This document shows, in pieces, positions 1 to 10,824 of a stretch of 64,000 nt of DNA. The position numbers and the translations under genes are program-made. The notes below the pieces were generated by a model. It did not search any database. It was not told the DNA's origin and saw nothing but the letters and a program-made list of their open reading frames with translations. How positions within the stretch are numbered: position 1 is the first letter of the stretch; each line of letters starts with the position of its first letter. Origin of the DNA: a virus; the IMG/VR virus record IMGVR_UViG_3300047476_000972, positions 1 to 64,000 of that record; one strand, 5' to 3'.

Positions 1-2
1 AA

Positions 3-3000
3 AACCCAACCAAGGCTGATATCGCCTCTGCAATTCCACTAGAGGACTTCCTGAAGACTCGCACCGACGCTCCAGAGGGTTGGACCAAGAACGAGGATGG
101 TTCTTTCACTTCTAAGTCTGGTCAGACTGTTAAGGCAGTTGACGCTCAGCCGGAGGGTGACTACATGGTTGAAGGCGCTGGCGAAAGCAATGCGATTGAC
201 CCTGACGTTCCTCTATTCGAAATTCGCGACAAAGACGGCAAGATTCTCGGTGTTGGCCAGAACTGGGCGGGCCTGAACAAGATTGCCATGACCTACGATG
301 CTCTTAATGGAGAGGGCGATGGCACTCCAGAAGAACCAGGCCTAGACCAGACCGCTGGCGAAGGCAGTGACTGGTTTGATAGCGCAGTTGACTTTGACCA
401 CTTATCTGATCCACAGAACTGGAGCCAGTTTAAAGACGGCGAAGCCACCTATACTTCTCCTGACGGCAAGCTAAAACTTACTTGGGAACCAGACGGTGAA
501 GGCGATGTCGGCTTCGGAGCCACCGACCTTTCTGGCATTTCTGTCGAGTACGACGGTCAGCCTGTCGGATCATTCCGAGCAACTCAGCGTGACCTCGAAG
601 AAGGCGACATCGAGGATGGTCTTAAGGATCTCCTAAAGAAGGAAAGCTGGTTCAAGCCAAGTAGCCTAGTCAAGACCGAAAACGACGGCAACTCTTACGG
701 GTTTGACACCGACAAGGGCTACGTAGAAGTAACTCCAGAATTTGACAAGAGTGGCAAGTTCATCGGCTACAAGGTTGAAAAAGAAGCTCGCGATCTAATT
801 GACGAAAACCGTGAAGGCTCTTATTTCAACACCTCTAAGTTCAAGACCAAAGAGGAAGCTCTAGCTGATGCAGAGAAGTTCGCTGAGACTCTTAACGACG
901 AAGACAAACTATCTGATCTTCTAAACGAAAGCTACATGGACGACCCTGGCTTTGACCAAGCTCCGGGTAAGGGAACCGAACTAAGTGAAGCTGGCAAGAA
1001 GATTGCCAAGGACCTAGGTGACCACAAGTTCTTCTATGAAGAAGATGCTGATGGCAATCTAACCGGAGGAGAAGCAACTTACACATCTCCAGATGGCCGC
1101 GTAGAAGCTAAGTACCGCGATGGCTCTTGGTTCGATGACGAGAAGGGCTACATTCCTTGGGACGAGATCGAGGTCTCTGTTGATGGGAAGCTTGTTGACT
1201 CCTTAGTTCGAGACAAACGAGAGTCTTGGCCTGACTTCCTTGACCGCGTTGCCGCTATGTCGGAAAACGGTCTAGAAAATCCTAACTATGCAGAAGAGAA
1301 GAAGGCTAAGCGCGAGGCCGATCGTAAGGCTCGCGAAGACTTCTATAACTCACCAGAGCAGGTAGAAAAGCGCGCACAGGCCAAATGGGAGAAAGAGCAG
1401 GCAGATGCCGCTCAGGAGCAGGCCCGCGAATCTGTTGACAAAGAGGGTCTACTTAAAAAAGTAGATGACCTAGCAAACAAGATCTTTAGTGGAGATAGCG
1501 GAGCCAGCGAAGAGTTCTGGGTGGGCGATGAAGACGAAGACGGCTACCGCAACTGGGGCGTTTACAGTGAAGATGGCGATGAAGTTGCCAGCGGAGTTTT
1601 CGGACCAACTTGGGATGAGACCGATATTGCTTCTGAAATTCGCAACGGAGTCAACGCTCACTTGGACAAGAAGCTTGATGAACTTGAGCCAGCCGCTGGC
1701 CTTGACCAGAATGCAGAGGCACCAACTAAGCCACTATCTGAAAAGCAGATGGAGCCAGCGACTGACAAGCAATATGCTTTCCTAGAAGAGCTACGCTCAG
1801 AACGTGACGGCATCTCGCCCGCAACTGAGAAAGCCATTCAAGATGCACTGGACAACCGCAACCTGACTAAAGCTCAGATGGCATCAATTCTTGGAGAGGT
1901 AACCAAGAAGCCTTTCAAGCCTGGTGTTGACCCAACCAAGCCAACTGAGCGCCAAATCAACTCACTTCAGGGCTACCTGTCTACTAAGGAACTAACTCCT
2001 GACGAGATGAACGACATTCTCGCCGAGCTTGATGCAGGGCTAGATCGTGACTCAATTGAGAAGCTCACCGCTAAGCTACGTCGTCGTCCAGACCGTCAAC
2101 AGACTGAAGGTCTTGATCAGTCAGCGGGTACCCGTTTAACAACTAACCCAGACGGGAGCTCAGAGTACTTCGGCGACGGTGCAGAAGTTGTTGTAGAGAA
2201 AGACGGTGACAAGTTCAAGGTCACGAAGTCTGCGTCTCAGTTCTTGCTAGACGAGAACATCGAACACAGCTACGAAAAAACCGAGACTTACGATTCTGAA
2301 GAAGAAGCACGTAAAGCAGCGGAAGACTTTGCAGCGACCATTGATGATCGCGACAAGCTCTACGACGAGATTTACGAAGACTGGCGCAACTCTGGTGCTG
2401 GCTTTGATCAGGCACCTGGAGAAACCAAGACTCTGTCCCCAAAGATGATGGAACCAGCTACTGATGCTCAGTACAGCTATCTAGAGGGACTCTTCGAAAG
2501 CAAGAACGGCGTTGACGCTGACACGGCTCAGGCAATCACCGAAGCTTTGGAATCTAAGAATCTGACCAAGGCTCAGGCTGGTGCATTTATTGGCAAGCTC
2601 CGCGAGCTAGGTGACAAAGAAAACCTAGGCCAATATGGCAAGCCTTCTCAGAAGATGATTGACTCTGTAAAGCGTGACGTTTACGCTAAGGGTTTGTCTG
2701 ACGCTGACCGTGAGGAAATTCTTAAGGACCTAGAAAACCGCTCAAAGGGCGATGTTTCATCTATCATCAGCATGTTGAAGGACATGGACAATGTTGCTGG
2801 CGGTATGGAGAAGTACATTGACAGCCTAGTTCAGAGTGGCGATGTTAACGCTTTGAAGCGTCTACGTGAAGATGGCCGTTTTGGAGACTACAACGTTGAT
2901 TTAGACAATGCTATTTCTAAGCTAGAGTCTGGTGACAAGGGTTTTGATCAAGCAGCCGGAAAGCAGTACGGAACATCTTGGGAGCAGATGAAGCCAGAGT

Positions 3001-3797
3001 TGGTTTCGTTGGCTGAGGATACCGAGAACAGCGATGAAAAAGGCTACGCGTTCTTAAGTAAAGAATTTGTAGAGGGCCTTGACCCAAACGATATTGATGA
3101 TGCCTACTACCTTTACTCCGAGTTGATGGATGCATACAAAGCGATGCGCCCTGAATCAGAAGAAGGCAAGGCACTAGAGGCTCGCCTGAAAAAGTCAGCT
3201 GACGACTTGCTCGCCAAGATCGAGTCCGACATGGGACCTATCGAAGCAGCTAAGCGTAACCCGGACGACATGGGAAGTACTTTTGAATTTGGTAAGGTTT
3301 TTGATGAAATTGAAGATCTAATTTCTTACTACTACCCTTCAAATGCAGACGAAATTGCCGACCAGCTAACCGACGATGATGGCGGTATTGTTGGCGATGT
3401 TCGCGGAGGCGGCTGGGAAGGTTCAGTACGTTTCAACGAAGAGACTGACAAGTGGGAAGCCCGCATGACTTCTCCTGGCCAAGACTCGGAGAACTACGGC
3501 GAAGACTTCGACTCCCTGTCTGACGCTGCCAACTGGGTTGGCGCGAGCATGGCAGACGAGAACAAGTATCTTCCTCCTCTAGAGGCTCGCCTGCTCAATG
3601 ATGGTTCGCAGGAGTCTCTAGAAGATTTGATTAAAGAGTACGGTGACGATCCAGCTGTTCTAGTTGAAAAGATTCGTTCAGCTGCAGCGTGGTTCCGTAC
3701 TACTCGTCGAAACCAAGGAGACCAGATCGCTAATAAGCTGGAAGACTACGCCGACAGGGTAGAACAGCTTAATGGCGGCACCTCCCCAAAAGCCTAG
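3..3797 (+). CDS. Giant acidic multi-module head-region protein (5'-truncated by window edge); candidate virion-packaged polyprotein
   Basis: The frame is open from nt 3 (NPTKADIASAIPLEDFLKT...) through the ORF-track ATG at 165 to TAG at 3795-3797. Very D/E-rich, with internal duplicated modules and six G[LF]DQ motifs. Lies just upstream of the protease and capsid genes. Confidence 0.75.
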   Translation, partial: NPTKADIASAIPLEDFLKTRTDAPEGWTKNEDGSFTSKSGQTVKAVDAQPEGDYMVEGAGESNAIDPDVPLFEIRDKDGKILGVGQNWAGLNKIAMTYDALNGEGDGTPEEPGLDQTAGEGSDWFDSAVDFDHLSDPQNWSQFKDGEATYTSPDGKLKLTWEPDGEGDVGFGATDLSGISVEYDGQPVGSFRATQRDLEEGDIEDGLKDLLKKESWFKPSSLVKTENDGNSYGFDTDKGYVEVTPEFDKSGKFIGYKVEKEARDLIDENREGSYFNTSKFKTKEEALADAEKFAETLNDEDKLSDLLNESYMDDPGFDQAPGKGTELSEAGKKIAKDLGDHKFFYEEDADGNLTGGEATYTSPDGRVEAKYRDGSWFDDEKGYIPWDEIEVSVDGKLVDSLVRDKRESWPDFLDRVAAMSENGLENPNYAEEKKAKREADRKAREDFYNSPEQVEKRAQAKWEKEQADAAQEQARESVDKEGLLKKVDDLANKIFSGDSGASEEFWVGDEDEDGYRNWGVYSEDGDEVASGVFGPTWDETDIASEIRNGVNAHLDKKLDELEPAAGLDQNAEAPTKPLSEKQMEPATDKQYAFLEELRSERDGISPATEKAIQDALDNRNLTKAQMASILGEVTKKPFKPGVDPTKPTERQINSLQGYLSTKELTPDEMNDILAELDAGLDRDSIEKLTAKLRRRPDRQQTEGLDQSAGTRLTTNPDGSSEYFGDGAEVVVEKDGDKFKVTKSASQFLLDENIEHSYEKTETYDSEEEARKAAEDFAATIDDRDKLYDEIYEDWRNSGAGFDQAPGETKTLSPKMMEPATDAQYSYLEGLFESKNGVDADTAQAITEALESKNLTKAQAGAFIGKLRELGDKENLGQYGKPSQKMIDSVKRDVYAKGLSDADREEILKDLENRSKGDVSSIISMLKDMDNVAGGMEKYIDSLVQSGDVNALKRLREDGRFGDYNVDLDNAISKLESGDKGFDQAAGKQYGTSWEQMKPELVSLAEDTENSDEKGYAFLSKEFVEGLDPNDIDDAYYLYSELMDAYKAMRPESEEGKALEARLKKSADDLLAKIESDMGPIEAAKRNPDDMGSTFEFGKVFDEIEDLISYYYPSNADEIADQLTDDDGGIVGDVRGGGWEGSVRFNEETDKWEARMTSPGQDSENYGEDFDSLSDAANWVGASMADENKYLPPLEARLLNDGSQESLEDLIKEYGDDPAVLVEKIRSAAAWFRTTRRNQGDQIANKLEDYADRVEQLNGGTSPKA

Positions 3798-3814
3798 CCC
3801 CCGAAGAGGGGGCT
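3785..3814 (+). other. Candidate programmed -1 ribosomal frameshift signal (C_CCA_AAA + hairpin AGCCCCC-GAAGA-GGGGGCT)
   Basis: X_XXY_YYZ heptamer at 3785-3791 in the ORF1 frame, 4-nt spacer, 7-bp stem at 3796-3814. The -1 frame is open from 3773 to 6097 with no ATG/GTG/TTG before 3917. Confidence 0.75.
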
Positions 3815-6097
3815 GAGCCTGGATTAGATCAGGACGCTCCAGATTTAGCAAGAATCTCTAGCATCCTTGATAAGTACCGCACTAAACCTGCGACTACTAA
3901 TTCTGTTCGCCCTGCAATGCCTGAAGGTGAACCAGGATCCAAAACTAATCCGCTCGAGCTTACCTCGGAGCAGTTTGACGAGAAGCTTGCTTCTGTAACC
4001 GAGACCAACAAGTCCGCGGCATCTAGCGTTCTTGCTGATGTATTAGAGAAGCTACGCACCCCTAAGAATATTCAAGCTTGGGCGCGCAAATGGGATAGGG
4101 ACGCTAATCGACCTCTCCCGGTTAACCCTGCAAGTGAGACCCACTACACAGGGCCTAACTTGCTTGCGCTAGAAAACGCAGCTTCGGAAAACGGATTCAG
4201 CGACCCTCGTTGGATGAGCGCCTCTCAGGTTGCTCAGGCTGGTGGCTCGATTCCAGCCGGAACCAAGGGTACTCAGATTCTCGTACCTAGCTTCTATGTT
4301 GCCAACCGTGATGGCAAGGTCGTTGAGTACTTTGAGTTCAGAAAAGTTACTGTTTTTAACGGTGACCAGATTCAAGGAATAAATCCATACAACGCCGACG
4401 ACAACAAGTCATATACTGCAAAGGAAGCTGTAGATATTGTTCTCGACAGGATGCGCGAAGCCGCAACTCTCCGAGATGTAGAAACTCCAGAGATCTTCGG
4501 TATTCAGCTAGATAAAGATCAAAATCCTCGCTGGTCACCAAACTACGGTAGAGATGTTGATAGCGTACGACTACCACTCCGCGCAAACTTTGATAGCGAT
4601 GAGTCTTGGTTCAATGCATTTGCTCACGAGCTTATTCACAGCACTGGTAGAACTAACCGACTTAACCGAGAAGAAGTTAAGAAGGCACTGGATGGGAACA
4701 GTAATTCCTACGCAGAAGAAGAGCTAACCGCTGAGCTAGGCTCTATGCTTCTAGCAAAGATGTTCGGGATAAATTCTGACCCAAGCAACTCGATTAGCTA
4801 TCTACTCACCCACATCAAGAACCTAGACGGCGTGAATGCCGATAAGGCCGTGACTGACGCCATGACTAGGGCTCAGCTGGCGGCGGACTACCTGCTGGGT
4901 AACGACGTTCTTCCTCAGTGGAACCCGCTCAAGACTAAGGTTGCTCCAACTCTACAGTCAGCAAGAATGGCGTCTACTACTCCAGAAGACTCTAGCTTGA
5001 ACCCAAACACTAACCCTGATTCAGTTGATGCTCCTCTAGTAGGCCTTGACCAAGCCCCGGGTAAGAAGCCTTTCAACCGTGCCAATTCAGTGTCAGATAG
5101 CAAGGACGCCAAAGAGCGAGTTCTATCTGGCCTACTGGAAAAGATTAAAGAAGGTAAGGCTCCTTGGCGTAAGCCATTCAAGGACGACGCTAACTATGCT
5201 GGTGCATTCGTTCCGCGTAACCCAGCGTCAAAGCACATCTACAGCGGTATTAACTCGATTGTTCTTCGACTACACCAAGAGCTTGCTGGGTACTCAGATC
5301 CTCGCTGGATGACATACAACCAAGCCACTGATCTAGGTGGTCAGGTTCGTAAAGGATCTAAGGGTGTTCAAATTCTTGTTCCTTACAAAAGGGTCAAGAA
5401 AGAGAAGGACTCTTCAACCGGAGAAGAGAAGGTAACTGGTAGCTATGTCACCTTCGGCGTAAAGACCGTATTCAATGTTGAACAAATTGATGGCCTAAAC
5501 CTGCCAACTGTTAAGGCTGAAGCAGGCGAACCAAAAACTCCTCTAGAGTCTCAGGATTTTATTCTGGAACGCTATCAGAAGTCAATGGAAGCCAAGGGTC
5601 TGAAGGCTCCTCAGGTTTCATACACCTATGTTGGTGCGTACGGAAGCCACTCGTCTTCTCCAAACTGGAACCCAGCTTCTGACGTCATTACTCTTCCAAC
5701 CAAGGAGCAGTTCAACAGCCCAGAGGATATGTTCGACACCATTGCTCATGAGTTAGCCCACTCGACCGGACACAAGGACCGCCTTGACCGCACCGAGCTA
5801 ACTAAGAACTACGGGACAAGCAATGCAGCTCGAGGCGAAGAAGAGCTTATCGCGGAAATTTCTTCAGCGATCCTAGCTAGCATGTTCGGCGTAAACAGCG
5901 ACTTTGACAACACTGCGGCTTATGTAAAGAGCTGGCTACAGGCACTACAGGATAACCCTGATATGGTTATGAAGGCCTCTTCTGAAGCTCAGAAGGTAGT
6001 AGACTATTTGCTAGGTATGGATCTGGGAGACTGGAGCCCTATCGAGGGTTACCGATCATCAAACAAATCTAAATCAGATGGAGACTCAGATGAGTAA
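3788..6097 (+). CDS. Tandem ArdC-like protein: 2 x (ArdC-N/DUF1738 ssDNA-binding + zincin MPTase); probably translated as a -1 frameshift extension of ORF1 (ORF-track start 3917)
   Basis: Two copies of NP(A)S..Y.G.N...L....(F/Y)SDPRWM...Q....GG....G.KG..I, each followed by HExxH (HELIHSTG, HELAHSTG) and EEL.AE..S. No SD precedes ATG 3917. Confidence 0.85.
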   Translation, partial: KSLAPEEGAEPGLDQDAPDLARISSILDKYRTKPATTNSVRPAMPEGEPGSKTNPLELTSEQFDEKLASVTETNKSAASSVLADVLEKLRTPKNIQAWARKWDRDANRPLPVNPASETHYTGPNLLALENAASENGFSDPRWMSASQVAQAGGSIPAGTKGTQILVPSFYVANRDGKVVEYFEFRKVTVFNGDQIQGINPYNADDNKSYTAKEAVDIVLDRMREAATLRDVETPEIFGIQLDKDQNPRWSPNYGRDVDSVRLPLRANFDSDESWFNAFAHELIHSTGRTNRLNREEVKKALDGNSNSYAEEELTAELGSMLLAKMFGINSDPSNSISYLLTHIKNLDGVNADKAVTDAMTRAQLAADYLLGNDVLPQWNPLKTKVAPTLQSARMASTTPEDSSLNPNTNPDSVDAPLVGLDQAPGKKPFNRANSVSDSKDAKERVLSGLLEKIKEGKAPWRKPFKDDANYAGAFVPRNPASKHIYSGINSIVLRLHQELAGYSDPRWMTYNQATDLGGQVRKGSKGVQILVPYKRVKKEKDSSTGEEKVTGSYVTFGVKTVFNVEQIDGLNLPTVKAEAGEPKTPLESQDFILERYQKSMEAKGLKAPQVSYTYVGAYGSHSSSPNWNPASDVITLPTKEQFNSPEDMFDTIAHELAHSTGHKDRLDRTELTKNYGTSNAARGEEELIAEISSAILASMFGVNSDFDNTAAYVKSWLQALQDNPDMVMKASSEAQKVVDYLLGMDLGDWSPIEGYRSSNKSKSDGDSDE

Positions 6098-6318: not shown

Positions 6319-9300
6319 ATGAACCACCTAATCGGCCGCTCTGGCGAACTAGCATTCTATGCTAACAACACTCACGGTGTAGTTATTGATACTGCCGTAG
6401 GAGCCGTTGTCGCCAGCGGTGCAGCGCTAGACCTATTTGCAGAAAACAAGTGGGAGCTTTCATCGACTCCTCTCACTCAATCAGAACAACTTCTTGCTGA
6501 CAAGGTCATAGCCACTCTAGAAGAAGACGCTATTGTTGCATCTGCTGACAGGATGTACACCATCCCTAAGTCAGCTCAGGCAGAGGCGGAAAAAGCCTTG
6601 GCTTGGCGGAAAGAAGAAGGCAGAGGCGGAACCCCTGTCGGCCTTAACACTGCCCGCACCCTCGCTAAGGGCGGTCAGATTGGCATCCGCAAGATCCGCC
6701 ACATTGCTAAATACTTCCCTCGTCACGAAGTTGACAAGAAGGGTAAGGGCTGGAAGCCAGGCGAAGACAACTTCCCGTCTAACGGACGTATCGCATGGGC
6801 ACTCTGGGGTGGAGACGCCGCTTGGCGTTGGGCACGTGCCATCGTTGAGCGCGAAGACAAAAAGGAAAACTCTGTCACTGCGGGTGGATACACTATTTCT
6901 AACTACGTTGATCAGATCAACTACCCTAAGCAGAATGAAGAGCTAAATCCTTTTAAGTACGCTCACGAGCTTGACGCAAACTACGGCCCAGAGTTCTTGG
7001 CTCGAGTCTGCCTAGATGGTTCTGGCATTGACCGACTCTACATGATCGATATTGATGGTTCTGTACACGTCTGGGATGACGGGTGTTGGGACAACCTAGG
7101 TCATGTTGATGGCGACATCTGGACATATGACCGAATGCTAGATGACGTCTATGATCTTGAGGAAAAATCTCACGTAATTATTGACCCTCAGTCTGCACTT
7201 ATGATTGCAGCGCGTATGGCTGTAGACCCATATTGCAAGACTTCTGTTTTTGACCTAGACTCTGACGAAGCGGCTCTAATGGAAGCTGGCATCGGCGGAG
7301 AAGACTGGGAATTCATTGACCAAGTCATTACTGCTGCAGCTTCTGATCAGGATGGTAACTACACTCCAGAAGAGCGTTCAGCAAATGCTGGAAACCAGCC
7401 TCGCAATGCTACCGGTCAGTTTGCCAAGGTAGGCCAGAAGGTAGCTATTGGTGGAGACGCTGCTAGAGGTTCTGGCACAATCCGAGACATTGACGGTGCG
7501 ACAGGCATTGTCACCGTCGACCTTGAAGACGGTAGATCCGTCAAAGTTGGCTCTAAGTACTTAGTACCAGCAGAAAAGGCAAACAGCCGACCAAACTCAC
7601 TTCGTGTTGATGACGCTAGCAAAGCTCCTATGGACTTTTCTGGAATCATCGGGGAGCCTCGTACTCCTCAGAACAGCAAGAAGGCTCACCTTCCGGGAAC
7701 CCTACCGAAGCTAGATGTTGATGCATTTATCAACAACTACGCGTCTTGGGTAGAGAAGGAACGCTACAAGCCAAAGAACGCGGCTGACAAAGCTGCTGTT
7801 AAAAAGCGTTGGCCAAATGCCAAGTTCACTGAGACTTCTATCATTGCAGCGGCAGAAGAAAAAGAAGAGATTCTTACTCCTTCTACTTCTGACGTAAGAC
7901 CTAGATACCTTGCCATCGTTGATCAGCAAGACCCAGAGGCAATGGTTGATCTCGTTGCTGTTATCCCTAAGACCGCTACTTCCACTACTCCTCTTGTCTA
8001 TAAGCGTGAGGGAGATAAGTGGGTTCAGGATGACCAAACTCTAGCTGACCTACGCTCGGCTACCAAACCTCCAGTAATTGAACTAGATAAAGAATCCCTA
8101 AAGGATGTCTTGTCTCAGATGGCAGAGGGAAAGCCTACAGAAGAATCTGCCCCGGAGGCTGTTGCAGCTAGCTTGCTAACTGTCTTTGATGCATTTGTTG
8201 CTGCTGGCGGCCTAGACCGCAACCGTGGCAATGCGGAAGAGCTTCGCCAATACTGGACTCGTGGTAAGGGCGCTGCCAAGATTCGTTGGGGCACTCCAGG
8301 CGACTGGACTCGTTGCGTCCGTCAACTTTCAAAGTACATGGGCCCACGTGCCAAGGGCTATTGTCAGCTTCGTCACAAGGATGCCACTGGCGTATACACT
8401 GGTAGCCGTCTAAACCCGGGCCGTCGTAACGAAACTTCTAGCCTATTTGCCAGCGAGATGGACTTAGTCCAGTCAGTAGTTGCTCAGTCCGAACTAACTG
8501 CGAGAGCAAACGACGCGAGAGAGCGTCTAGGGCTGGTCGCTGGTGCAAAAATGGAGCACGGTGCCAAGTTCAACATCCCTCTACTGATCCCAGAAGACTT
8601 GGAATCAGGAGATGGTCGTAAGTTTGTAAAGGACTCTCTGTCAGTTCGAGAGCTTCCACTTCCACTCCTATGGCAGATCAAGACTGGCGACGGTCACATG
8701 GGGTCTGTAGTAGTTGGACGTATTGATTACGTAGAAAGAACCGAAAACGGTATCGGAAATGCCTATGGCGTTTTTGATACAGGAGCATATGGTCAAGAGG
8801 CAGAGCGTCTAGTACGTAACGGATTCATCCGTGGTGTTTCTGCAGATCTAGACCAGTTCGAGGCAGAAGAAGAGAAGACTGAAAATGCCGAGGACACCGA
8901 AGACGTAGGCAAGAAAAAGCTAACTATAAATCACGCCCGTGTAATGGCTGCTACAATTGTAGCTAAGCCTGCATTCCAAGAATGCACTATCTCTATTGAA
9001 GAACAACCAGCGGGAGACCAGGAGGATGAAGTGATTCCAGTTGACGGAATATACGAAGAATCCGTCGAACAAGAATTCTCTGGCGCACCGCTAGTTGCTT
9101 CAGGATTCATTGACGGCGAGATTCCTATGACACCACCAGCAGAGTGGTTCAAGGACCCTAAGCTGACTAAGGCTACCCCGATTACTGTTGACCCTTCTGG
9201 TCGCATTTACGGACACATTGCAGCTTGGCACGTAAACCACATCGGTATGCCTCGCTCTACCCGCCCACCTCGCTCAAAGAGCAAGTATGCTTACTTCCAC

Positions 9301-10824
9301 ACTGGCGTAGTCCGCTGTGCCGATGGGACTGACATGCCAGTCGGTCAGCTAACTCTTGCTGGTGGGCACGCTCCACTAACTGCTAACGCAGCTTCTGCCG
9401 CTAAGCACTATGACGACACCGCTTCTGCGATTGCCGATGTCCACATGGGTGAAGACGAGTACGGTATCTGGTGCTCTGGCTCTGTACGTCCAGACGCAAC
9501 TGAAATGCAGATTCGTGCACTTCGCGCTTCTGCTCCTTCCGGTGACTGGCGTCCAATCAACGGCTCACTTGAGCTTGTTGCTGTTTGCCAAGTAAACGTT
9601 CCAGGCTTCCCGATTGCTCGCGCGATGGTTGCTTCAGGTAAGGTTATGGCTCTAGTTGCAGCTGGCGCAAGCATGATGGCAATCATGAAGAGCCAGCACG
9701 TAGCGACTCTATCTGAGCGTGCACACAACCTAGCCGAGCTCTCGGCTAATGCTCCTGACCTACGCTCTCGCGTTAAGTCAGCTAAGAAGGCTGTAAAGAA
9801 GCAGGCTATTATTGCCGCTGCTACTAAAGCAGAGGAACTAAAGACCCGTGCTCTAGTTGCTGCAGCTGTTGCCGAGCTAGCTAAGTTCTCCGAAGAAGAG
9901 AGATCTGAACTTGCTGACAAGGGCTTCGCGCTTCCAGACGGTTCTTACCCTATTCGTAACGAGCAAGATCTACGTAACGCAATTCAGGCATATGGACGTG
10001 CAAAACGCGAGAAGCGTGTTACCGTTCGCAAGCACATTGTTAAGCGAGCCAAGGCTCTTGGTAAGGCATATCTAATTCCAGACGAATGGAAGTCAGCCGG
10101 ATCAACCGAGGCTGCTACTATTGTTGCTTCGATGCGCTCTCGACTAGCGGAGTTTGCAGAAGCTCCAGCCAAAGAAATTTCTGATGCTGACCTAGAGAAG
10201 CTCAAGGATGCTAAGCAGGAAGCTGACAAGCAAACTGAAGAAGAGATCAAGATTGCTGAAGACATCCGTACAGGTAAGACCACTGCTAAGGAAGTCTATG
10301 ACGCAGAGGGTCGCAGTAAGTACACCCCAAAGACTCAGCCTCGTGATGCTAAGGGAAAGTACCGTAAGGTCCTTGCTCGTCTAAAGCAGAACCTAGGTGT
10401 AGCTGGTCTTCAGAAAGCCCTAGAAAAAGTAGAAACTGCCGAAAACCTAGAGTTTGCTGGTGACTACGTAAACTCGGCTAAAGCCAGCAGTGAGCTACTA
10501 GGGATGATTGATCGTCTAGACACTAAGGCCCTAAACCCTGAGTCTCTAGAGAACGTCCGCTCAACCGCGGCCGAGCTCGGCAAGACCATTGCCAACCTTC
10601 CATTGCCATTCGGCAAGGAAGCTCAGAAAGTTAGATTTAGCGATCTACCTGCCGGACTAAAGACACTCATCGATGGGATGATTTCTCGAGTCGAAGCAAA
10701 GATCGGTAAAGAGGACGCAGACGTTGCAACCGCAAATCTGAAGTCCTTCATGTCCGGAGCAGATGTCTATTCTCAGGCTGAAATTCAGTCAGAGATGAAC
10801 ACCCTGCTCAGACTCCTTACCTAA
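6319..10824 (+). CDS. Multi-domain capsid maturation (prohead) protease
   Basis: Central protease-like segment ESGDGRKF...LPLPLLWQ...GH...VVGRI...RGVSADLD...AATIVAKPAF. Additional phage head domains: IAWALWGG; YWTRGKGAAKIRWGTPGDWTRC; DUF6582-like ALPDGSYPIRNEQDLRNAI. Directly upstream of the capsid gene. Confidence 0.75.
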   Translation: MNHLIGRSGELAFYANNTHGVVIDTAVGAVVASGAALDLFAENKWELSSTPLTQSEQLLADKVIATLEEDAIVASADRMYTIPKSAQAEAEKALAWRKEEGRGGTPVGLNTARTLAKGGQIGIRKIRHIAKYFPRHEVDKKGKGWKPGEDNFPSNGRIAWALWGGDAAWRWARAIVEREDKKENSVTAGGYTISNYVDQINYPKQNEELNPFKYAHELDANYGPEFLARVCLDGSGIDRLYMIDIDGSVHVWDDGCWDNLGHVDGDIWTYDRMLDDVYDLEEKSHVIIDPQSALMIAARMAVDPYCKTSVFDLDSDEAALMEAGIGGEDWEFIDQVITAAASDQDGNYTPEERSANAGNQPRNATGQFAKVGQKVAIGGDAARGSGTIRDIDGATGIVTVDLEDGRSVKVGSKYLVPAEKANSRPNSLRVDDASKAPMDFSGIIGEPRTPQNSKKAHLPGTLPKLDVDAFINNYASWVEKERYKPKNAADKAAVKKRWPNAKFTETSIIAAAEEKEEILTPSTSDVRPRYLAIVDQQDPEAMVDLVAVIPKTATSTTPLVYKREGDKWVQDDQTLADLRSATKPPVIELDKESLKDVLSQMAEGKPTEESAPEAVAASLLTVFDAFVAAGGLDRNRGNAEELRQYWTRGKGAAKIRWGTPGDWTRCVRQLSKYMGPRAKGYCQLRHKDATGVYTGSRLNPGRRNETSSLFASEMDLVQSVVAQSELTARANDARERLGLVAGAKMEHGAKFNIPLLIPEDLESGDGRKFVKDSLSVRELPLPLLWQIKTGDGHMGSVVVGRIDYVERTENGIGNAYGVFDTGAYGQEAERLVRNGFIRGVSADLDQFEAEEEKTENAEDTEDVGKKKLTINHARVMAATIVAKPAFQECTISIEEQPAGDQEDEVIPVDGIYEESVEQEFSGAPLVASGFIDGEIPMTPPAEWFKDPKLTKATPITVDPSGRIYGHIAAWHVNHIGMPRSTRPPRSKSKYAYFHTGVVRCADGTDMPVGQLTLAGGHAPLTANAASAAKHYDDTASAIADVHMGEDEYGIWCSGSVRPDATEMQIRALRASAPSGDWRPINGSLELVAVCQVNVPGFPIARAMVASGKVMALVAAGASMMAIMKSQHVATLSERAHNLAELSANAPDLRSRVKSAKKAVKKQAIIAAATKAEELKTRALVAAAVAELAKFSEEERSELADKGFALPDGSYPIRNEQDLRNAIQAYGRAKREKRVTVRKHIVKRAKALGKAYLIPDEWKSAGSTEAATIVASMRSRLAEFAEAPAKEISDADLEKLKDAKQEADKQTEEEIKIAEDIRTGKTTAKEVYDAEGRSKYTPKTQPRDAKGKYRKVLARLKQNLGVAGLQKALEKVETAENLEFAGDYVNSAKASSELLGMIDRLDTKALNPESLENVRSTAAELGKTIANLPLPFGKEAQKVRFSDLPAGLKTLIDGMISRVEAKIGKEDADVATANLKSFMSGADVYSQAEIQSEMNTLLRLLT

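Follow-up and report, generated by a model that had tools for sequence, protein, structure and literature searches.

How a phage translates a long open reading frame (ORF) without a usable start codon is the question raised by IMG/VR virus record IMGVR_UViG_3300047476_000972, in which a giant gene (ORF1) is followed, in the -1 frame, by an ORF for two units of ArdC type. The record is a single contig of 77,561 bp from an uncultured freshwater phage, and the window that was analysed comprises its first 64 kb (positions 1 to 64,000). An initial annotation made from the sequence alone had proposed that a fraction of the ribosomes changes frame at the end of ORF1. Our analyses make it very probable that this end constitutes a canonical -1 programmed ribosomal frameshift site, composed of the following elements:

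1..3797, plus strand, codons from position 3: ORF1, the gene for the 0-frame giant modular (polyvalent) protein, with its start at the far end of the contig
3785..3791, plus strand: slippery heptamer C_CCA_AAA (X_XXY_YYZ) in the 0-frame register, codons CCA and AAA
3795..3797, plus strand: 0-frame stop codon TAG, exactly one codon past the heptamer
3796..3814, plus strand: putative stimulatory hairpin AGCCCCC-GAAGA-GGGGGCT, with the stem 4 nt past the heptamer
3791..3916, plus strand: post-shift linker, present in the -1 frame only, with AGC at 3791 as first post-shift codon and no start codon
3917..6097, plus strand: body of the -1 ORF with two tandem ArdC-N plus zincin MPTase units, recognized by Pfam, PHROG and HExxH motifs

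The 3' end of ORF1 reads ACC TCC CCA AAA GCC TAG, and both the heptamer and the hairpin are present in the register and at the distance that the initial annotation had given for them. The core of the hairpin consists of five C:G pairs (C5:G5, 3798-3802 with 3808-3812), begins 6 nt past the heptamer and encloses a 5-nt loop of variable sequence (3803-3807), and the stem can be extended to 3792-3818. The 36-nt cassette is predicted to fold at -19.5 kcal/mol with a stem of 7-8 bp (z = -4.05), and none of 200 shuffled sequences folded equally well. Also as originally described, the -1 frame is closed by a TAA codon (3770-3772) and then open from 3773 to 6097; the opening lies four codons ahead of the heptamer here and 1-17 codons ahead of it in relatives. 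A genome-wide control identified approximately 42 canonical heptamers in frame, among which the one at 3785 has the strongest downstream fold (-20.5, compared to -13.0 for the next best) and is the only one with a -1 frame that stays open for at least 200 codons (770 codons), indicating that the site is more than a chance occurrence. Heptamers of its class, V_VVA_AAR, were found to be among the most efficient ones in E. coli (Sharma et al., 2014, PMC4066793). Positions 3600-4000 gave no match in Rfam 15 at E <= 1, neither a promoter-like nor a terminator-like site was detected on the plus strand between 3300 and 6100, and inspection of the relatives' alignment by eye revealed no conserved Shine-Dalgarno-like stimulator upstream of the heptamer. 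Two other roles of the elements were considered and discarded, namely an intrinsic terminator, because the hairpin lacks a U tract and the terminator scan returned no plus-strand site, and read-through of the TAG codon, because the 0 frame meets another TAG nine codons further downstream.

Relatives were collected from IMG/VR through the protein, a search that is unbiased with respect to the signal. Queries with the C-terminal portion of ORF1 and with the beginning of the -1 ORF yielded six related contigs, and a longer relative used as query led to L032, whose downstream ORF is 45% identical; as counted here, the set comprises eight contigs, seven close ones and L032. All eight retained the two-frame layout, with a canonical heptamer that a single codon separates from a stop (TAG or TAA, equally spaced throughout) and with a CCCCC-N5-GGGGG hairpin. 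The initial annotation had left room for homologues that are fused in frame or that start independently; neither an in-frame fusion nor a conserved start with a Shine-Dalgarno sequence occurs among the eight relatives. The seven close sequences agree at every position from 3785 to 3816 save for 3794, which is the wobble base of the 0-frame alanine codon, and the 5-nt loop (GAAGA, AGCGA, AATGA, AACGA, GAAGC or AAAAA), and the flanking columns are only ~50-75% identical. At the homologous junction of L032, A_AAA_AAA is followed by GAC, TAA and CCCCC-GATGA-GGGGG, with the core again 6 nt past the heptamer, and then by x-L-D-Q. The occurrence of two heptamers of one class at one homologous site is what selection for slipperiness, and not selection on the encoded peptide, would predict. 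One contig (L009) was considered as an in-frame exception and rejected, since the same cassette ends its 566-aa upstream ORF; an inserted extra module of ~160 aa separates its shift site from its ArdC units. The relatives P0004-P0007 have ParB-like modules in front of ArdC, and L032 is the only relative of this kind recovered via IMG/VR. Scans of metagenomes and prokaryote genomes that used the alignment of the protein yielded nothing beyond duplicates and distant ArdC genes, and no homologue fused in frame was found among proteins of 1,356-3,870 aa, which is weak evidence.

A scan of IMG/VR for the pattern AAAA-NNN-TAR-CCCCC-N5-GGGGG, in which the first three bases of the heptamer were left free, returned 70 loci, of which 15 combine a long 0-frame ORF that ends at the stop of the pattern (375-1,943 aa) with a long -1 ORF (175-1,367 aa). 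At all 15 of these loci, the free positions are occupied by CCC or AAA. Seven of the 15 contigs were new, and in these seven the spacing of the stop was fixed by the pattern itself. At the remaining 55 loci, ORFs are short or absent, and only one of these loci (L093) has seven A in a row. Among the -1 ORFs of those new members that were scanned, Pfam searches detected ArdC-N/MPTase in L075, L113 and L092 and an ADP-ribosyltransferase domain (PF03496) in two more distant phages, L067 (2673-5243, minus strand) and L092 (2-4096, minus strand), in the latter ahead of the ArdC/MPTase unit; the -1 ORF of L058 (895 aa) had no Pfam match. Compared with the window, the upstream ORFs of the set show 29-63% identity over their C-terminal 300 aa or no detectable similarity, and the downstream ORFs show 32-90% identity. 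Conservation rises abruptly, and exactly at the cassette, from 37-63% for the last 300 aa of ORF1 to 61-90% downstream in the same relatives, and a contig of an L002-like phage from run X8 matches the window only from 3785 on. The pattern suggests a mosaic joint at the slip site, with the signal and the ArdC block apparently moving as one mosaic unit.

The first ATG, GTG or TTG codon of the -1 frame is the ATG at 3917, and it is preceded by 43 seemingly intergenic codons whose -1 translation reads KSLAPEEGAEPGLDQDAPDLARISSILDKYR. This linker carries G-L-D-Q at 3821-3832 and a conserved, helix-like RI..L.KYR stretch, and the predicted tryptic peptide directly after the junction lysine (SLAPEEGAEPGLDQDAPDLAR) lies entirely upstream of ATG 3917. 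The initial annotation had taken the G-L-D-Q motif, which recurs in ORF1, as a sign that the linker is translated, and this argument holds: within the genome, G[LF][DN]Q is confined to ORF1, which contains six copies of G-[LF]-D-Q, and to the -1 ORF, and the motif is kept ~11 residues past the shift site in the seven close relatives (as D-L-D-Q in L032). Variable columns among the 43 codons are distributed over codon positions 1, 2 and 3 as 17/32, 8/33 and 28/33, and nine residues ahead of the ATG never change (G, L, Q, R, I, L, K, Y and R, arranged as G-L-x-Q and R-I...L-x-K-Y-R). The pattern of substitutions in the 43 codons is that of a sequence coding in the -1 frame.

The absence of a start codon ahead of ATG 3917 and of a Shine-Dalgarno sequence for this ATG had been pointed out before and holds true; the 16 nt in front of it (TTCTGTTCGCCCTGCA) contain no Shine-Dalgarno-like sequence. 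In relatives, position 3917 is GTG (L001) or GTA (L002-L004), and even in wild populations of the phage the ATG is polymorphic, with A>G in two strains (runs X4 and X8). P0003, a protein with 98% identity, has valine at this position, and its gene call begins at an upstream leucine codon within the GLDQ motif. L004/L018 lacks any ATG, GTG or TTG within 330 nt, and a stop in its -1 frame one codon ahead of the heptamer leaves only a stretch of 13 nt, with the heptamer inside it, for the shift to occur. None of the candidate starts has a Shine-Dalgarno sequence. Since the downstream ORF lacks a usable start, the ArdC/MPTase units would be made only as a C-terminal extension of the ORF1 product.

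Constraint is also visible at the level of the RNA. The signal block is nearly invariant, compared to the 28 of 33 variable third positions just downstream of it, indicating that synonymous variation is suppressed in the signal. The stem is made of codons that the phage avoids: in seven of its large genes, CCC accounts for 3% of the proline and GGG for 8% of the glycine codons, and both are retained in every relative, as is AAA, which accounts for 28% of the lysine codons. Among 13 distinct cassettes the C5:G5 core is invariant and the loop varies. Because the stem hardly varies, the evidence for the structure consists of conservation at synonymous sites, variability of the loop, stability of the fold and retention of rare codons.

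If the two ORFs were separate genes, ORF2 would have its start at ATG 3917 or, further upstream, at a non-canonical codon, and the heptamer and hairpin would serve in mRNA stability or pausing. ATG 3917 is indeed present in this genome, gene callers list stand-alone ArdC proteins of 724-757 aa for relatives in public data, and distant single-unit ArdC genes (32-37% identity) all have their own ATG with a good Shine-Dalgarno sequence. The replacement of ATG 3917 by GTG, GTA or, in wild strains, by A>G, the lack of any candidate start with a Shine-Dalgarno sequence, which in L004/L018 extends to the lack of any start at all within 330 nt, and the protein-level constraint on the 43 upstream codons nevertheless render two separate genes very unlikely. 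The gene-caller starts in P0004, P0006 and P0007 are artefacts, because they fall at different points inside one and the same conserved ParB-like module. Alternatively, RNA polymerase might slip on the C4/A4 or C5/G5 runs by inserting or omitting a base and thereby bring a subset of the mRNAs in frame, for which the runs of seven A in some relatives would be suited, as such runs can slip slightly. However, productive transcriptional slippage in bacteria requires runs of ~8-9 A/T or more, and the longest runs in this locus (C4, A4, C5 and G5) are too short. Furthermore, CCCAAAA and AAAAAAA alternate in combination with the same hairpin and spacing, which fits re-pairing of tRNAs. A contig of 337 nt from a metatranscriptome library spans 3642-3955 with a single change, located in the loop (3807 A>C), and without an insertion or deletion (indel), which counts weakly against slippage, as contigs hide rare forms. 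Overall, we regard transcriptional slippage as highly improbable.

Homopolymer runs such as C4, A4, C5 and G5 are error-prone on some sequencing platforms, and the initial annotation had itself named an indel as a possible artefact, in which case the real gene would be one continuous ORF. Contigs (Logan) of four public runs were placed on 3300-4300, among them three metagenome runs, two of freshwater and one of aquatic origin, that belong to three studies. One sample of another study, with a word depth of ~84, is identical, and two strains differ by 11-34 substitutions without a single inserted or deleted letter. The same layout is present without gaps in these four runs and in 15 independently assembled IMG/VR contigs, which excludes an indel error, and the 0-frame stop at the same distance in all eight protein-found relatives agrees with this; the probability that remains for such an error is negligible. 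A decaying gene, in which a frameshift mutation broke an ancestral in-frame fusion and left the ArdC part as a pseudogene, appears extremely unlikely. No specific point speaks for it. The 768 codons past the break are intact, the lineages share 32-90% identity over them and retain full Pfam domains as well as the HExxH motifs, and the break point coincides with a perfect slip signal in every lineage. The lack of in-frame relatives among longer proteins points in the same direction, although as weak evidence.

Some observations weigh against the interpretation as a programmed frameshift or limit it. The strong support for it comes from comparison. The covariation in the hairpin on which the initial annotation had set its hopes is nearly absent: five of the seven pairs never vary, and one compensatory change was observed in one outer pair. 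Furthermore, the stem doubles as -1-frame coding sequence for Ala-Pro..Gly-Ala, and constraint on the protein could account for part of its conservation, but would not explain the invariant wobble bases in the stem. The spacer between heptamer and structure is typically 5-9 nt. The 4 nt to the base of the stem look shorter than this, and the spacing is standard only if the C5:G5 core, at 6 nt, is the effective element. Rare variants, finally, are invisible in Logan contigs, in contrast to raw reads.

With a programmed frameshift, translation could proceed as follows. A ribosome positioned on C_CCA_AAA would have its P-site tRNA-Pro on CCA and its A-site tRNA-Lys on AAA, while the GC-rich hairpin, with its invariant C5:G5 core 6 nt downstream, would be located at the mRNA entry channel. 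Most ribosomes would read GCC and terminate at TAG to release the product of ~1,430 aa. A fraction would slip back by one base, from CCA to CCC and from AAA to AAA with both tRNAs re-pairing, and would continue in the -1 frame through the 43-codon linker and the two ArdC-N/zincin-metallopeptidase units to yield a fusion of ~2,200 aa. The ratio of ArdC/MPTase to the carrier, which is encoded next to the head genes, would thus be set by the RNA signal. We infer from the arrangement that ribosomes slip, that they do so at a certain frequency and that the purpose is a sub-stoichiometric dosing of anti-restriction and protease cargo on a carrier.

The part added by the shift has the ArdC-type architecture of an ArdC-N domain followed by an HExxH metallopeptidase, twice in tandem, and its anti-restriction role is predicted from this. 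Pfam searches returned two copies each of PF08401 (ArdC-N, E = 3.2e-47) and PF18818 (MPTase-PolyVal, E = 2.6e-48), and PHROG 7245 ("anti-restriction protein") matched with E = 2.7e-117. The HExxH motifs are HELIH (4625-4639) and HELAH (5747-5761). The two units share 36% identity, and a G-L-D-Q linker at 5042-5053 lies between them. An AlphaFold2 model of the linker and the first ArdC unit, based on an alignment of seven sequences, had a mean pLDDT (predicted local distance difference test) of 48, which was too poor, and the model was not used.

The predicted size of the fusion, for which the initial annotation had stated more than 2000 aa, depends on the circularity of the contig. The contig is cut inside ORF1, with an in-frame continuation from its far end (genome 77045-77561, L012:13045-13561) into window 1-3797, and the relatives L013 (2631-3188) and L017 align unbroken over the join of the contig ends, indicating a circular or permuted assembly in which ORF1 is complete. 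Candidate starts are TTG at genome ~77045 and ATG at ~77069, and depending on the start the 0-frame product has ~1,430 aa. Its N-terminus is an AAA_33/polynucleotide-kinase-like (PNK-like) module, and the remainder of ORF1 received no noteworthy Pfam or PHROG assignment. A Pfam scan of the upstream ORFs of four relatives yielded no domains and thus no AAA_33-type module, and this genome lacks homologues of the genes located before the relatives' giant ORF. Upstream of ORF1, the genome contains nucleotide-metabolism genes and an S8 subtilase (Peptidase_S8, E = 1.3e-31) at L012:10528-11724 (genome 74528-75727), ~1.3 kb before the start of ORF1. On the other side, the -1 ORF is followed directly by another large ORF:

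6319-10824 of the window, directly downstream of the -1 ORF: ORF of 1,501 aa with PHROG matches to "portal protein" and "head maturation protease" at residues 722-1198

The first 700 residues of this ORF match only unknown PHROGs, and no separate portal or terminase was identified among the ORFs scanned. The major capsid gene and then the tail module (~13-27 kb) follow. A blastn search with 3300-4500 against 50,697 GenBank phage records gave no match.

The G[LF]DQ motif, followed by small residues, occurs eight times in the fusion (at 339, 948, 1698, 2109, 2400, 2940, 3821 and 5042). Close relatives have 6-11 copies at module boundaries (D-L-[DN]-Q as a variant in L032), and modules are inserted or swapped between relatives; ParB-like, ADP-ribosyltransferase and small unknown modules are found between the slip site and ArdC, each bounded by a linker. 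The location of a motif ~11 residues past the shift site in each close relative places the cassette within an inter-module linker. To judge from the sequence, the motif looks like a protease site. A tentative and rather doubtful extension of this observation is that the frameshift acts as a dosing device similar to that of Gag-Pol, in which the abundant 0-frame product would be a string of cargo modules with G[LF]DQ cut sites, and the rare trans-frame MPTase would do the cutting and add the ArdC units, with a fixed small dose entering the capsid and later the host. A cassette that travels with the ArdC block would, on the Gag-Pol-like reading, explain the jump in conservation at the slip site. 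Autoprocessing by MPTase was proposed by Iyer et al. (2017, PMC5512222), and the Gag-Pol-like reading fits this proposal. The S8 subtilase and the prohead protease are alternative candidates for cutting the linkers besides MPTase.

Polyvalent proteins were described as multi-module proteins with an MPTase-PolyVal hub (PF18818), ArdC-N (PF08401) and swapped modules (Iyer, Burroughs, Anand, de Souza and Aravind, 2017, PMC5512222), and the protein described here is of the same kind: several effector modules are combined with a zincin MPTase hub (MPTase, ArdC-N and the AAA_33 kinase), as known here from the genes. Delivery together with the DNA, as for polyvalent proteins, is predicted, and the one pointer to it is the position directly upstream of the 1,501-aa ORF and the major capsid gene. 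Unlike the proteins in that survey, the ArdC/MPTase part is here joined by recoding, and the modules are punctuated by G[LF]DQ. Frameshifting is never mentioned by Iyer et al. (2017, PMC5512222; 0 occurrences), and full-text literature searches for polyvalent protein, frameshift and phage yielded nothing relevant by title or abstract, while searches for ribosomal frameshifting, bacteriophage and ArdC yielded nothing. The paper describing PRFect gives no more than a hint at a possible joining of MuF-like and VIP2 toxin genes through programmed frameshifting (PMC10885494). The mechanism itself is canonical and of textbook type, and its gene context, a polyvalent protein, appears to be unpublished.

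Several known systems resemble the locus in part. OrfA-OrfAB of IS911 and the IS3 family has a V_VVA_AAR heptamer near the end of the upstream ORF and a downstream RNA structure, the stimulators of which were tested previously (PMC4066793), and likewise a downstream ORF without an efficient start and two products in a set ratio. The genes are unrelated, however, and the extension here comprises 768 aa of anti-restriction and peptidase units on a phage polyprotein. In addition, the stimulator in IS3/IS911 is a pseudoknot or three-way junction as opposed to the simple 7-bp hairpin found here, and the 0-frame stop one codon past the slip site, which also occurs in the eight protein-found relatives, distinguishes the phage locus. 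Among phages, the major head and tail proteins of phage A2 are subject to -1 frameshifting near the stop, outside the tail-chaperone pair (Atkins et al., 2016, PMC5009743). Gp5A/gp5B and the major tail protein of Lactobacillus phage A2 and gene 10 of T3 and T7 are, like the locus described here, cases of a C-terminal extension of a phage gene that is no tail chaperone. In A2, T3 and T7, the extensions are short decoration or Ig-like domains on a capsid or tail protein, in contrast to two enzyme-bearing units on a protein of ~1,430 aa. The site in phage A2 is reportedly also C_CCA_AAA followed by a stem-loop. Lambda gpG/gpGT shares the property of a -1 programmed frameshift that is conserved in tailed phages and yields a short and a long product in fixed ratio, although locus and proteins differ and the tail module of this genome is located at ~13-27 kb. 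Retroviral Gag and Gag-Pol similarly combine an abundant polyprotein with a minority form to which frameshifting adds enzymes including a protease, from one mRNA and in a fixed ratio. This likeness is an analogy without homology, and for the phage protein both the processing at linkers and the packaging are predictions.

In the output of annotation pipelines, the locus appears as two proteins, a giant hypothetical one and an independent "ArdC" whose start is invented, which hides that the ArdC/protease units are probably made only within the ~2,200-aa fusion. The cassette of V_VVA_AAA, one codon, UAR and C5-N5-G5 is specific enough to search metagenomes for it directly. If confirmed, the site would be a well-conserved and easily assayed addition to the few phage frameshifts known beyond tail chaperones and capsid decorations, and it would mean that recoding, besides gene fusion, is a way in which polyvalent proteins can be assembled. 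It would also offer a handle on how the dose of injected effectors is set and on what the ArdC metallopeptidase cuts.

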